A stretch of DNA of 37,040 nucleotides from an uncultured archaeon (GTDB taxonomy: Archaea > Asgardarchaeota > Heimdallarchaeia > Heimdallarchaeales > Heimdallarchaeaceae). The position numbers and the translations under genes were made by a program. Numbering within the stretch: the first letter of the stretch is position 1; each line of letters starts with the position of its first letter. Positions 1-5,980 of this stretch are shown here, in pieces. A model generated the notes under the pieces. It saw only the letters and a program-made list of their open reading frames with translations. It was not told where the DNA came from and ran no database searches. The DNA lies in contig CAZJUB010000009.1 in assembly GCA_964549075.1 (NCBI GenBank), forward strand, positions 31,159 to 68,198, given 5' to 3'.

Positions 1-90
1 CTTCGCTGGAACTTCCTTTACTGGAGCTTTCTTCGCTGGAACTTCCTTTACTGGAGCTTTCTTCGCTGGAACTTCCTTTACTGGAACTTC
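1..90 (-). repeat. 30-bp coding tandem repeat encoding KKAPVKEVPA in the Rpb5 tail
   Basis: cttcgctggaacttcctttactggagcttt is exact at 1-30 and 31-60, with a partial copy from 61; no spacers; truncated by the window edge. Confidence 0.95.
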
Positions 91-768
91 TTTGGTAGGT
101 GTTTTCTTTGCTTCACTTGCCTTCTTGGTAGCTGTTGTTTTTTTAGTTGCTGTTTTTTTAGTTGTAGATTTTGTATCAGATAGTCTTAATCTTGATGATG
201 ATTTTATGATGACTCTATAATAAGCTCCTTCTTCACCCATCTCAGGATTACGAATAATTTTTATAACGTCTCCTGGTTTTGCTTGGATCGCTTTGACTGC
301 TGGATCAGTTTCAAGTATCTTGGGAATCTGATGTTTTTCTATCTGATATTTTCCAAGAAAATCACTAACTTCTTTTTTCTTCAATCTAATATGGTGTGGA
401 ACCAATTCATGATCAAATATATTGAAAAGAGGATTTGAACTACTAATAATTTCTATCCCTAATTTAACTGATTCCTTTTTAGCATAATGTGTTAGAGCCG
501 ATTCTGCGACTAATAATGCTTCATCAAGATCTTCTTCTTGTTGCTTTTTTCCTAAAGTTCTGATAGTTTTAACTCCAATTTGTGGATTTTTTGGAAATCG
601 AGCAATGGCAGTGATTTTATCTCCTTCCTCCTGTTTTTTCTCAGCGTAAACATCAATGTATTCATCATCTTCTTGAGGTTTTTTAGTAGTAAATCCTCTA
701 AATTCTAGAATCTCTATAATTCCTTTTTTGATTCTATCTTCTTTTGCTTGCTGTTCTTTAGTTACCAA
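1..768 (-). CDS. rpo5: DNA-directed RNA polymerase subunit Rpo5/Rpb5 with eukaryote-type N-terminal jaw domain and repetitive Lys/Pro-rich C-terminal tail (3' end runs off the window)
   Basis: Not in the ORF track; translated by hand. TTG start at 768 with GAGGT upstream, frame open to base 1. RpoH/Rpb5-C motifs FNIFDHELVPHHIRL...QIPKILETDPAVKAIQAKPGDVIKIIR...YYRVI. N-terminal IIEILEFRGF...FPKNPQIGVKTIR resembles the Rpb5 N domain. Confidence 0.93.
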   Translation of the reverse strand, partial: MVTKEQQAKEDRIKKGIIEILEFRGFTTKKPQEDDEYIDVYAEKKQEEGDKITAIARFPKNPQIGVKTIRTLGKKQQEEDLDEALLVAESALTHYAKKESVKLGIEIISSSNPLFNIFDHELVPHHIRLKKKEVSDFLGKYQIEKHQIPKILETDPAVKAIQAKPGDVIKIIRNPEMGEEGAYYRVIIKSSSRLRLSDTKSTTKKTATKKTTATKKASEAKKTPTKEVPVKEVPAKKAPVKEVPAKKAPVKEVPAK

Positions 769-824
769 GGAAGTTACCTCGCTCTCATTTACTATCAAAT
801 GGTTTAAAATCTTTTGAAAAGTGA

Positions 825-2139: not shown

Positions 2140-4404
2140 TCATGATAGGAAAGTTAGTTGTTTAAGTATATTGAATAACTCATCGATAGGTAATTTCTGA
2201 AGTTTTTTATTGTCTCTAGTTTTTCTTTCCATTTCCATCAATAGAAGTCCGTATTCATATGCTGATTTGGCTATTTGAGCAAAAGTAGAATCATACTGAG
2301 AAATCGTTTGTAGTTTTTCACTTGCGTTATTTGCTTCTTTAGAAGCTTCTAAAAAGAAAGAAGCTGCTTTGTAATTGTCATTGTTTGTATCAGCACCAAT
2401 CCCTAGTATTGCACTTTTAGTAGCTTCTAGAAAATTCGTGAGTGCTTCTGAGAGAACTTTTTTTATTTCAATTGCATTCCAATTTATGTTGGAATCCTTT
2501 AACTCAAACATGTTTTTGTGTTTAAGTAGTTCACCACAATCCTCACTTATTCTGATATTTATTGCATTAAATAAAACAAATTGGTTAAAGTTATGTTTGA
2601 TTATGAGCTGATAATTTTCTTTAGAAGTCTCTTTTTGAGTAACAGCTATTTTGTAACTTCTAGCAATGAGATCTATTACAATATTTAAGAAAAGAAACTG
2701 CCTTGTTAGTTCAAATAGCCTTAATTCTACATCCTCCCCTTGAATAAAGGTTTGACTATATCTGTGTTCTACCCACAATTTGTCAATTTTTGATTTATCA
2801 CTTAATTGAGAAATTTCAAGCGCTTTTGTTGAGTAGTAGTGAGCTTTTGCGTGATAAATTATGTCCAATACCTCGTTAGAATCCTTTTCAATCAGACTGT
2901 TTTCTAAGTAAATCGAATTTGCCATAAATTCTAGACACTCTATATCTTTAATTATGTACACTTTACTCTCAGATTTTGGTAGAAAATAGGCTGATAGTTT
3001 TATATTGGAAATATTTTCAAGCAAAGGTTCAATAATTTCTGGTTTGATTTTCTCTCCTCGTTTCTCTATTTCTATTAGTTGTTCTGAAATATCTTTGATA
3101 GCATATTCAAGACTTTCAATGAATCTTAATAGATTTTGTTCTGCTTTATTTATGGCTTTATCAATTGATAGATTCTCAAGTGAAGCAATTTTAAGCTCTT
3201 GAACAAAATTAAGATACACATATGGTAAGCTACTAACATAGTTGATATTTACCTTCAATCCAGGTTTGTTTACTATCTTTTCGATTTCTTTAATTATTTT
3301 CTGAACTTCTTTTTTTGTATTTGTATCAATAATGGCGTTTAATTGTGATGTTTTTGCTGCAAGCTCTGCAATACCATGAAAGAATATATGAACAATCTCA
3401 TTTTTAGTGATCTCTTCCTTTATTTTCTGATTTCTTTCTTCAGATTCTTCAGTTGATGAAAGAACTTCAAGAGCTTCTTTTTCTAAACCTAAAACCAAAT
3501 TAAGAAATTGTACACTTGCAATAAAACTGTCACTTTTAGCTGCTTCAAAACTTAATCTAAGATAATGACCGATTAATTCCTTGTTTCTTAGAGCTTGGTT
3601 TAATAAAAGATGACTGCTCTCTATTTGTTTACTCCTTAACTCAGGATCTTCTGGCAGCTTACTATAATATGAAAGTGCTTTCTCTAAGTGCGATTGACTC
3701 CTCTCGTAAGCAAAATGTGTAGCTATTGGATCTCTCCACCACCAGTCATTTCCTAGACGTTTTAAAAATTGAGCAGTGAATGATACATCAAATTCTGCAA
3801 GCACCATTTCATAAGCTCCTTTCTCTTCGAGTAATCTCTCTTTGTTTACTCCTTTAGGAGATTCTTCAAGAAGGTGGATTATCTGATTTTTCTGATTTAG
3901 AAGTAAAAATGTTAGCATAACTTCTTCAATGCTTGAAGCTCGAGGATGTGTAGAATCAAAGTAAGTCTGCGAAATGGAATTTAAGATTCTATAACCTTCA
4001 ATATAGGAAGTACAATAATCCTCAGAAGGTTGAGTACTAAAAATACCTGTGTTAACAATATCAGCATAGATTATCATTAAATTGGCAAGTTCCATCTGGA
4101 ATTCTTGTAGATCTTCTAATTTTGCTGTTAACATCTCTTTTCTCTCTGAATCTGATTCGATTTGCAATTTATCGCGAGTCCATTCATCAAGAAAACGGCT
4201 ATATAGCAGATGAGCTAGTGATGATATATTATTTAGAGTTTCTGCGCAAAATCTAGAAAAACTTAACCAAACTTGGCTTAGTTCATCTAAATCATCTATC
4301 TGGACAAAAGAGTGGTAAATTCTTTCTCTTTCTAACTCCATTAAAACAAATTGTTTGAAAGGTGAATCGCTTAACAGTTCTATTGTCTCTTTGGAAAATG
4401 CCAT
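2140..4404 (-). CDS. Large alpha-helical hypothetical protein (754 aa)
   Basis: Long ORF with L/E/K/A-rich amphipathic helical patterning; no TM segments or catalytic motif recognised. Confidence 0.8.
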   Translation of the reverse strand: MAFSKETIELLSDSPFKQFVLMELERERIYHSFVQIDDLDELSQVWLSFSRFCAETLNNISSLAHLLYSRFLDEWTRDKLQIESDSERKEMLTAKLEDLQEFQMELANLMIIYADIVNTGIFSTQPSEDYCTSYIEGYRILNSISQTYFDSTHPRASSIEEVMLTFLLLNQKNQIIHLLEESPKGVNKERLLEEKGAYEMVLAEFDVSFTAQFLKRLGNDWWWRDPIATHFAYERSQSHLEKALSYYSKLPEDPELRSKQIESSHLLLNQALRNKELIGHYLRLSFEAAKSDSFIASVQFLNLVLGLEKEALEVLSSTEESEERNQKIKEEITKNEIVHIFFHGIAELAAKTSQLNAIIDTNTKKEVQKIIKEIEKIVNKPGLKVNINYVSSLPYVYLNFVQELKIASLENLSIDKAINKAEQNLLRFIESLEYAIKDISEQLIEIEKRGEKIKPEIIEPLLENISNIKLSAYFLPKSESKVYIIKDIECLEFMANSIYLENSLIEKDSNEVLDIIYHAKAHYYSTKALEISQLSDKSKIDKLWVEHRYSQTFIQGEDVELRLFELTRQFLFLNIVIDLIARSYKIAVTQKETSKENYQLIIKHNFNQFVLFNAINIRISEDCGELLKHKNMFELKDSNINWNAIEIKKVLSEALTNFLEATKSAILGIGADTNNDNYKAASFFLEASKEANNASEKLQTISQYDSTFAQIAKSAYEYGLLLMEMERKTRDNKKLQKLPIDELFNILKQLTFLS

Positions 4405-5275: not shown

Positions 5276-5980
5276 ATGTCAGATTCAGAGAAAAAAATGA
5301 ATATTCTCATAGAAGAAGCAAATGCTAATTATAACGCAAATAGGTACAAGGACGCAGCAAGGACCTTTGAACATCTCATAACATTAGCAATTCAAAATAA
5401 TGAAGAAGAAGAAGCAATTTATTTTGCATATAGATCCGCTGATTGTTGGAGAAAAGATAAAAACGAGATGAATCGGGCAATTATCTTTAGAGATATTGGA
5501 AATTTAGCCTATAGTTTTTGTTCCAAAATAATTGATGATTTTGCTTCAAAATCAAAAAGTCCTGAGGACAAAGCAAAAGCTTTACTACTAGCTGGTGAAT
5601 GCTTGATTTCGCAAGATAAGACAAATGCACATAAGAAGCTAACAGAAGCAAAGGAAATATTCGAAGATTTAGCGAGTAAAACCAAGGATACTAAGGCGAA
5701 ATCTAAATATCTAATGGAAGCTCTTGTGTGTGTTAATAAAATCGGGGATAAAAAACAAATAAAAGAATTGCAAATTAGAGTTGCAAATCACCACGTTACT
5801 TCCGCTGAAAGGAATATTAAAAATGATACCCCGGAAGATTTACAATCTGCTTTAAGGTCATATGAAGATGCTTTGGAATTATTTGAAAGTTTGAAAATGA
5901 AAGAAGATATCCAAACAATATCAAAGAAAATAGAAGCTCTGAAGAAAAAAGTAGCTGAGTATGATCCATTCGCAACATAA
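5276..5980 (+). CDS. TPR/SNAP-like helical repeat protein
   Basis: TPR-like helices: ANANYNANRYKDAARTF, AYRSADCWRK, LLAGECL, ALRSYEDALELFESL. Confidence 0.7.
   Translation: MSDSEKKMNILIEEANANYNANRYKDAARTFEHLITLAIQNNEEEEAIYFAYRSADCWRKDKNEMNRAIIFRDIGNLAYSFCSKIIDDFASKSKSPEDKAKALLLAGECLISQDKTNAHKKLTEAKEIFEDLASKTKDTKAKSKYLMEALVCVNKIGDKKQIKELQIRVANHHVTSAERNIKNDTPEDLQSALRSYEDALELFESLKMKEDIQTISKKIEALKKKVAEYDPFAT

Follow-up and report, generated by a model that had tools for sequence, protein, structure and literature searches.

A three-part archaeal Rpo5 with an N-terminal domain of probable common origin with the eukaryotic Rpb5 jaw

The window analysed here is a stretch of 37,040 nucleotides (nt) from an uncultured archaeon of the Heimdallarchaeaceae (Asgardarchaeota; GenBank assembly GCA_964549075.1, contig CAZJUB010000009.1, positions 31,159 to 68,198), and at its left edge, on the minus strand, lies the gene for the RNA polymerase subunit Rpo5, also called RpoH. 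The encoded protein is quite probably the organism's only Rpo5 and consists of three parts, namely an inactivated domain of the Mrr nuclease type with the same ancestry as the eukaryotic Rpb5 jaw, the RpoH assembly domain and a disordered polycationic tail. The features of the gene, all on the minus strand and in window coordinates, are as follows.

1..768 (-): coding sequence of rpo5/rpoH between the likely start TTG768 and the edge of the window, beyond which the gene crosses a gap of 100 N and ends with a stop at about position 1203 of locus L001
796..798 (-): alternative upstream start TTG, adding 10 residues; less likely
803..810 (-): ATTTTAAA, an A/T-rich, putatively TATA-like box 35-42 nt upstream of TTG768
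776..780 (-): GAGGT, a putative Shine-Dalgarno-like element read from the sequence, 7 nt upstream of TTG768
427..768 (-): N-terminal domain, 114 amino acids (aa), predicted to be a dead Mrr-type PD-(D/E)XK fold and a homologue of the Rpb5 jaw
208..426 (-): RpoH / Rpb5_C assembly domain, residues 125-197; Pfam PF01191, E 3.6e-25
1..207 (-): first part of a disordered C-terminal tail rich in Lys, Pro, Ala and Thr, with a predicted local distance difference test score (pLDDT) below 50 for residues 208-266
1..89 (-): 30-bp tandem repeat, 3.0 copies with 98% matches, encoding a 10-residue repeat of the tail; equivalent to L001 1501-1589

Rpb5 is common to all three nuclear RNA polymerases; its jaw borders the channel for the downstream DNA and offers a docking site to transcription factors. 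In the available portions of earlier work this jaw appears as a eukaryotic possession: it has been described as present in eukaryotes only (Korkhin 2009, PMC2675907), RpoH has been given as lacking an N-terminal extension, with the N-domain "found only in eukarya" (Sommer 2014), and PF03871 has been tabled under Eukaryota within the PD-(D/E)XK superfamily (Steczkiewicz 2012). The first of these portions also places Rpo13 in a groove beside Rpo5 which in eukaryotes is partly filled by the Rpb5 jaw (Korkhin 2009, PMC2675907). The accessible part of a study of small archaeal subunits from 2026 includes models of the Rpo5 of Asgard archaea and Bathyarchaeota and does not mention a long Rpo5, and the main text of Eme 2023 mentions neither Rpb5 nor RpoH. 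A literature search, with supplementary tables outside its scope, found no description of an archaeal Rpo5 with an Rpb5-type N-domain. The long forms are carried in databases under the names "subunit H", "RpoH/Rpb5 C-terminal domain-containing protein" and, for six among the matches listed, "RPABC1".

The rpo5 gene and its start codon

A minus-strand frame without stop codons covers window positions 1..798 when counted from TTG798, or 1..768 from TTG768, and is open at the left edge. Because it runs off that edge, it is absent from the default list of open reading frames (ORFs) and appears only when open ends are allowed, so that an earlier reading made from the sequence alone was right in saying that the ORF track had missed the gene. 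The window begins directly after a scaffold gap of 100 N inside the 3' repeat array of the gene, and beyond this gap the same frame runs on for 65 residues before a stop is reached. A gap-free copy, P0002, is found on other contigs; it comprises 303 aa from TTG798, and its first 200 residues are 100% identical. Counted from TTG768 the protein is about 293 aa or longer, the number of repeats in the tail being uncertain since P0002 holds fewer of them than the two flanks of the gap summed.

TTG768 is the likelier start codon, as judged from the sequence. Most relatives begin there: in the 29 that were aligned, the start lies at the TTG768 column in 18, two residues later in four and later still in two, and five, the window's own translation among them, reach up to the upstream start. 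The GAGGT element stands 7 nt upstream of TTG768, and the ATTTTAAA box is only 5 nt before TTG798, which is too close for a start at that codon. The residue numbering of domains and motifs, above and below, is counted from TTG798.

The assembly domain reaches 87.9 bits against PF01191 (cut-off 23.5), and the NCBIfam model NF007129, an equivalog of subunit H, is matched with 88.4 bits (cut-off 83). No other protein of this genome, which is 89.7% complete, passes the PF01191 cut-off, the runner-up having an E-value of 0.11, and the N-domain has no second copy elsewhere in the genome; the window gene thus appears to be the polymerase subunit of this genome rather than an extra paralogue. When compared to canonical archaeal RpoH/Rpo5 (77-84 aa; PDB 8cro_H, 4qiw_H and 2waq_H), the C-domain matches with template modelling (TM) scores of 0.78-0.82 and 38-49% identity, and the canonical subunit is likewise encoded by a single-copy gene and matches the NCBIfam equivalog. 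Nonetheless, the canonical form has neither the N-domain nor the tail and is encoded directly upstream of rpoB, whereas the window gene is detached from rpoB, which is located on a different contig.

The N-terminal domain as a conserved and folded unit

The RpoH domain is preceded by 114 residues counted from TTG768, in agreement with the figure of about 115 aa in the sequence-only reading, and the motifs which that reading quoted are all found in the translation (IIEILEFRGF at 27-36, FPKNPQIGVKTIR at 68-80 and ALTHYAKK at 101-108). This N-terminal region is a real, conserved and folded protein domain under purifying selection. In AlphaFold2 models it has a pLDDT of 88-93 inside the whole protein and, when modelled alone, a pLDDT of 89.7 with a predicted TM score (pTM) of 0.81, the topology being a helix, two long strands, a helix, a strand, a helix and a strand. 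Many positions are invariant across the 29 aligned family members. In within-genus pairs the ratio of nonsynonymous to synonymous substitution rates (dN/dS) is 0.02-0.17 for the N-domain and 0.04-0.15 for the RpoH domain, values which are to be read only as far below 1 because dS is saturated. A total of 53 relatives were found, and the 10 for which a source is named all come from Heimdallarchaeota or Heimdallarchaeaceae.

By its fold the N-domain falls into the PD-(D/E)XK superfamily, which is restriction-endonuclease-like. Structural comparison of the whole two-domain model with Foldseek places RPB5 chains at all of ranks 1-36 (34 eukaryotic and two from African swine fever virus, ASFV), aligned over about 140-220 columns through both domains, with archaeal Rpo5 chains following at ranks 37-48 and matching the C-domain only. 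The model of the N-domain alone was compared with 48,161 chains by VIA-align, where the top group comprised AF1548 (Z 11.3), Arabidopsis NRPB5A (Z 10.8; root-mean-square deviation 2.5 over 107 residues) and NucS (Z 10.2), followed by ASFV RPB5 (Z 9.5) and Pol V subunit 5A (Z 9.1). In Foldseek the same model retrieved RPB5 chains intermixed with EndoMS and AF1548, at E-values of about 2e-4 to 6e-4.

Sequence relationship to Rpb5_N and to Mrr nucleases

A HMMER profile of the whole-protein family aligns in one collinear stretch with residues 64-209 of human RPB5 and 3-205 of Arabidopsis NRPB5A, and the archaeal Rpo5 chains in the PDB match it through the C-domain only. A second profile was made from the N-domain alone, so that RpoH residues contribute nothing; it comprises 24 N-domains (the window and 23 loci from other genomes of the phylum), each cut five residues before the H..VP.H motif. 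Against all PDB sequences it finds human RPB5 (8.8e-11), the Arabidopsis protein (8.2e-10) and the yeast protein (2.6e-6), and no significant match beyond RPB5, the next, unrelated one being at 0.017. In the HMMER alignment with human RPB5, the archaeal RGY, P..VGV..VR and T..AKK positions are matched by the eukaryotic motifs RGY, FPEEPKVGIKTIK and MTPSAKQ, as had been proposed for the motif counterparts in the earlier reading.

When searched against 1.84 billion representative proteins, the N-only profile gave 1,940 matches at E<=0.001. Among the best 150 of these, 51 carry Rpb5_C, 27 carry Rpb5_N and about 50 are genuine Mrr_cat nucleases, with Mrr_cat E-values below 1e-20 and fusions to other modules. 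Two proteins of about 190-206 aa pass Rpb5_N and are labelled RPABC1, but have C-domains of eukaryotic or viral appearance. Eight rows of this kind (P0137, P0151, P0158, P0173, P0176, P0186, P0187 and P0201), together with P0073 and P0046, were left out of the alignment designated A4 and are not counted as archaeal.

The window domain itself passes the Pfam family Mrr_cat (PF04471), with 28.4 bits for the whole protein and 30.8 bits for the N-domain alone at a cut-off of 21. With hhalign, the pairing of eukaryotic Rpb5_N and Mrr (E 1e-8) is the weakest of the three possible among archaeal, eukaryotic and Mrr domains. By the ranking of the three, the archaeal domain is an intermediate, nearer to Mrr than to Rpb5_N, which bridges two distant families. 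Together with the Foldseek ranking of the whole model and the domain tree below, these profile comparisons support the view that the N-domain is a homologue of the Rpb5 jaw domain of eukaryotes.

Phylogeny and loss of the active site

A maximum-likelihood tree was calculated from 101 domains (51 from archaea and fused to RpoH, 12 from eukaryotes and 38 free Mrr) under LG+C20+F+G4 over 112 columns. It sets the whole of the 38 free Mrr domains apart by a branch supported by an ultrafast bootstrap (UFBoot) of 99 and a Shimodaira-Hasegawa-like approximate likelihood ratio test (SH-aLRT) of 89, in 100% of 200 bootstrap trees. The phylogeny that had been suggested as a check on the sequence-only reading thus groups the N-domain with eukaryotic Rpb5_N and apart from the free nucleases. 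Those of eukaryotes group as a single clade (100/100), whose long branch arises within a poorly separated archaeal radiation.

The columns of the active site tell the fused and the free domains apart. Free Mrr domains have the glutamine in 34/38 cases and the lysine in 37/38, while at these two columns the archaeal fused domains (n=51) have R, W or L and I, F or L, respectively, and the eukaryotic ones (n=12) have F and F. The lysine column in particular is occupied by I, F, L, Y or V in 43/51 archaeal fused domains. At the column of the catalytic aspartate, 24/51 archaeal domains retain D and 8/51 have E (about 63% acidic), with T in 10/12 and V in 2/12 eukaryotic domains, and the glutamate of helix 1 is retained in 11/51 archaeal fused domains. 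The window protein has D49 at the aspartate column and R67 and F68 at the glutamine and lysine columns. The nuclease Q-x-K motif is therefore lost in both the archaeal and the eukaryotic fused groups, and on these residues the N-domain is predicted to be catalytically dead.

Distribution and the link to rpoB

When used as a single query, the window N-domain finds matches in 164/400 genomes of the phylum, and the N-domain profile does so in 220/400 at E<=0.001; this profile also detects free Mrr domains, so that weak matches are not all Rpo5. The profile matches in 29/30 genomes of the window family, in 79/82 of the class (families f1-f7) and in many other families too. The matching open frames are mostly 180-230 aa, and those that were spot-checked carry the RpoH domain. 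One large family is nearly negative (3/135, all weak), and families f9, f10, f11, f18, f21, f23 and f27 are likewise negative. Short forms were seen in families f20, f9, f10 and f19. In all five genomes of negative families that were checked (93-100% complete; L060-L064), RpoH is a frame of 91-100 aa directly upstream of rpoB.

In a named collection, 647 proteins matched at E<=1e-10, and the names among the best 120 of them include Jordarchaeaceae, Promethearchaeota and Bathyarchaeota. In P0252, a protein from Bathyarchaeota, hhalign recovers the N-domain (97.7%, E 2.5e-12), and relatives of this protein occur in 25 species genomes, 23 of which are titled Bathyarchaeota or Bathyarchaeia. The long form is thus widespread in at least two archaeal phyla and not private to the lineage of the window. 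Since it is present in Bathyarchaeia and absent from some Asgard families, it does not constitute a simple synapomorphy of Asgard archaea and eukaryotes. The sequence-only reading had proposed a eukaryote-like jaw in this lineage: the homology of the N-domain to Rpb5_N stood, the feature extends well beyond the lineage, and the placement of the domain at the jaw is a position suggested by analogy. The other two of the 25 genomes (L067 and L074) are metagenome-assembled genomes titled Krumholzibacteriaceae and Desulfaltia, with proteins 91% and 77% identical to the Bathyarchaeota protein; these are probably mis-binned archaeal contigs.

Adjacency to rpoB was surveyed by scanning the 900 nt downstream with a regular expression for the N-terminal motif of rpoB, a rough measure whose span is tight for long-tailed genes. 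It was positive in 5/5 short-form controls. Where a long-form locus had 700 nt or more of downstream sequence, the motif was found in 0/14 of the window family, 0/9 of other Asgard archaea and 0/22 of the Bathyarchaeia set. Possession of the long form thus seems to be linked with loss of the rpoH-rpoB operon position.

Further architectures of the subunit were observed in the course of this survey. Two families of the window's order have an Rpo5 of 432-493 aa with two or three tandem dead-Mrr N-type domains before a single RpoH (L040 487-1803(-), L041 47-1342(+) and L042 194-1672(+)), and P0057 and P0059 each contain 2-3 stretches matching the N-domain profile. A tripled jaw which parallels these archaeal multi-jaw forms is present in P0076 (456 aa), an Rpb5 of the eukaryotic type in which Pfam Rpb5_N is matched three times (2.6e-49) ahead of a single Rpb5_C. 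In some genera of another family of the phylum, two adjacent two-domain rpo5 paralogues lie about 650 bp apart (L055 1-483 and 549-1127(+); L056 527-1150 and 1190-1846(+)), and several genomes have 2-3 matches. Two further proteins are possibly chimeric gene calls: P0087 (561 aa), in which an N-type domain is joined to part of Cpn60_TCP1 and to an incomplete Rpb5_C, and P0111 (227 aa), in which Rpb5_C runs into an MS_channel domain.

Origin of the fused domain

The tree, the active-site columns and the identical domain order together speak for the fused, inactivated domain having arisen only once, which is regarded as probable, with a fair share of doubt remaining. Part of that doubt concerns convergent fusion, in which archaea and eukaryotes would each have joined a different Mrr-type domain to RpoH, so that the archaeal N-domain would be neither ancestor nor orthologue of Rpb5_N. 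Several observations weigh against the single origin, and some of them also lend themselves to this alternative. Pfam Rpb5_N gives the window domain 15.7 bits (whole protein) or 17.7 bits (N-domain), below the cut-off of 27, and reaches E<=0.1 in only 5/24 archaeal N-domains (best 1.5e-5), whereas Mrr_cat is passed by 24/24 (best 2.1e-12), with NA-iREase1 assigned as well. The refuting condition named in the sequence-only reading, a missing Rpb5_N match, thus nearly holds at the level of Pfam: with the Rpb5_N cut-off missed and that of Mrr_cat passed, the homology to Rpb5_N shows only at the level of profiles, in the PDB search and in hhalign. In addition, genuine Mrr nucleases equal eukaryotic Rpb5 in profile score (best 2e-15 and 7e-14, respectively), and in hhalign the archaeal-Mrr pairing (E 4.2e-24) is stronger than the archaeal-eukaryotic one (E 1.9e-14, 98.3%). 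The specificity seen in the PDB may partly reflect a scarcity of solved close Mrr_cat members, and the PDB result was dropped as a proof of Rpb5-over-Mrr specificity, since Mrr scores are equal or better in the large search and in hhalign. Following helix 1, eukaryotic Rpb5_N also contains some 20 inserted residues which are missing from the archaeal form. In the models, the fold alone cannot tell Rpb5_N from Mrr-type nucleases, as AF1548, NucS and EndoMS tie with it. As for the tree, its Mrr and eukaryotic rows are the best matches to the archaeal profile, the columns are few, the eukaryotic branch has a length of 1.42, the bootstrap had not quite converged (0.987) and the sister position to eukaryotes within archaea has a support of only 34/0. 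Among the matches, Mrr domains moreover join readily with many partners, including FtsK, RuvB_N, ankyrin and TackOD1.

Convergent fusion is nonetheless considered improbable. The archaeal and eukaryotic proteins have the same order, the N-domain is directly contiguous with RpoH in both, and the alignment is collinear through the two domains; the 99/89 branch sets the eukaryotic and archaeal fused domains together against the 38 free Mrr, and in both fused groups a hydrophobic residue replaces the catalytic lysine. The weakness of the eukaryotic-Mrr pairing is what would be expected if the archaeal form were an intermediate. That domains of one superfamily should have been fused twice independently, both times to the same terminus of this small subunit, would also be unparsimonious.

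A transfer in the reverse direction, by which the long form would have arisen in eukaryotes or giant viruses and reached Asgard archaea and Bathyarchaeia horizontally, appears very unlikely. It would accommodate the patchiness within the phylum (the short forms of the four families named above), the occurrence in two distant archaeal phyla and the poorly supported position of eukaryotes within the archaeal radiation. However, the archaeal domains are far more diverse than the eukaryotic ones and closer to Mrr, about 63% of them are acidic at the aspartate column and the 12 eukaryotic rows are not, and eukaryotes constitute a single long-branched clade. The C-domain of the window also passes the archaeal subunit H equivalog model, and the eukaryote-like or virus-like forms are visibly unlike the archaeal ones in their C-domains.

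An active nuclease carried on the polymerase, cutting for example DNA or RNA at stalled complexes, is highly doubtful: the Mrr_cat cut-off is passed and D49 is invariant within the family, but R67 and F68 occupy the Q-x-K positions in the window, the lysine column is hydrophobic or aromatic (I, F, L, Y or V) in the 43 archaeal fused domains mentioned and only 11 of the 51 keep the helix-1 glutamate. It is scarcely credible that the N-terminal part is an artefact of annotation, with 114 untranslated upstream codons or a misassembled gene and a true product of about 80 residues, since the TTG start and a scaffold gap at the opposite end of the gene have to be set against a frame open and conserved in 79/82 genomes of families f1-f7, a dN/dS far below 1, a confident fold, the Shine-Dalgarno-like GAGGT before TTG768 and the presence of the same fusion on hundreds of independent contigs.

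The window protein can be compared in more detail with two known systems. With eukaryotic Rpb5/RPABC1 (POLR2E, yeast ABC27; PF03871 + PF01191; PDB 1dzf, 8uhd_E and 7eu0_E) it shares the domain order in collinear alignment, a PD-(D/E)XK N-domain without the catalytic lysine, and RGY, P..VGVK.I and T..AK at equivalent positions. It differs in a shorter N-domain without the insertion of about 20 residues, which stays below the Rpb5_N cut-off, is nearer to Mrr nucleases and keeps the first catalytic aspartate, and in a lysine-rich tail lacking in the Rpb5 sequences compared; furthermore, the archaeal host has one polymerase and not three. With the Mrr-type catalytic domain (PF04471; AF1548 1y88 and NucS 2vld) it has in common the fold (Z 11.3 and 10.2), a score above the Pfam cut-off and the motifs G[FY], [VI]G[VI]..[VI]R, [FY]T..A and E[LI][IL], whereas it has lost Q-x-K and is fused to a polymerase subunit, not to DNA-recognition or ATPase modules.

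The C-terminal tail

The 66 tail residues inside the window contain 30% K+R and have a net charge of +14. Past the N gap (L001 1401-1500) there are a further 4.3 copies of the 30-bp repeat (L001 1271-1400), with 97-98% matches on both sides. Tails were surveyed in 52 proteins of the family that contain the motif closing the RpoH domain, a set which includes fragments and the copies from the window itself; they comprise 21-166 residues and are net positive in 46/52, with K+R mostly at 30-43%. The long forms of other families mostly stop right after the RpoH domain, and the repeat-encoded charged tail is a lineage-specific addition. In 6/52 family proteins (P0043, P0044 and P0046-P0049) the tail is net acidic, which speaks against a role in DNA binding as a general one, and the property common to all is a charged, flexible tail. 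A histone H1-like identity of the tail was considered and rejected, given 19.4 bits against PF07382 (cut-off 40) and 31.1 bits against NF038053 (cut-off 80); the likeness is one of composition only.

A lysine-rich C-terminal segment carried on the polymerase is also found in Rpo13 of Sulfolobales, as described in the available part of Korkhin 2009 (PMC2675907), where it is proposed that this C-terminus touches downstream DNA. Rpo13 is, however, a separate helix-turn-helix subunit, non-homologous to the tail of the window protein, and the analogy between the two would be a functional one.

Proposed function and evolutionary meaning

In the arrangement proposed here, the N-domain of about 114 residues would be a Mrr-type PD-(D/E)XK domain which has lost its nuclease site and has a common origin with the eukaryotic Rpb5 jaw. 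The RpoH/Rpb5_C domain would anchor the subunit to the largest subunit of the polymerase, and the N-domain would sit on the lower jaw beside the downstream DNA, as in RNA polymerase II (Pol II), by analogy with the architecture in the accessible part of PMC2675907. The lysine-rich tail may add non-specific contacts to DNA, as proposed there for the C-terminus of Sulfolobus Rpo13.

A broader proposal, towards which the analysis leans with less assurance than towards the three-part composition, is that the Rpb5 jaw, held to be "eukaryote-specific", was invented in archaea: it would stem from a Mrr-RpoH fusion whose active site was lost before eukaryotes arose, which they inherited and which then diverged fast. 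In the window family the added tail, fast-evolving and encoded by repeats, may tether the polymerase to DNA or chromatin. Were this so, the origin of the jaw module would move into archaea, with a dead Mrr-type nuclease as its source, a finding comparable in kind to the earlier discovery of Rpb8 orthologues in archaea. Archaea with the long form would constitute simple systems for jaw function in a cell with one polymerase, and the association of the long form with lost rpoB adjacency, as well as the variable charged tails, would provide testable leads.

Neighbouring genes

Upstream of rpo5 lie a gene for an OapC-like zinc-ribbon protein and a BpsA_C gene, and a CofD gene lies downstream. Elsewhere in the window, an ORF of 754 aa at 2140-4404(-) matches no Pfam family at E<=0.001. 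A protein of 234 aa at 5276-5980(+) has weak, sub-threshold matches to SNAP, MIT and TPR and may be a eukaryote-like repeat protein.

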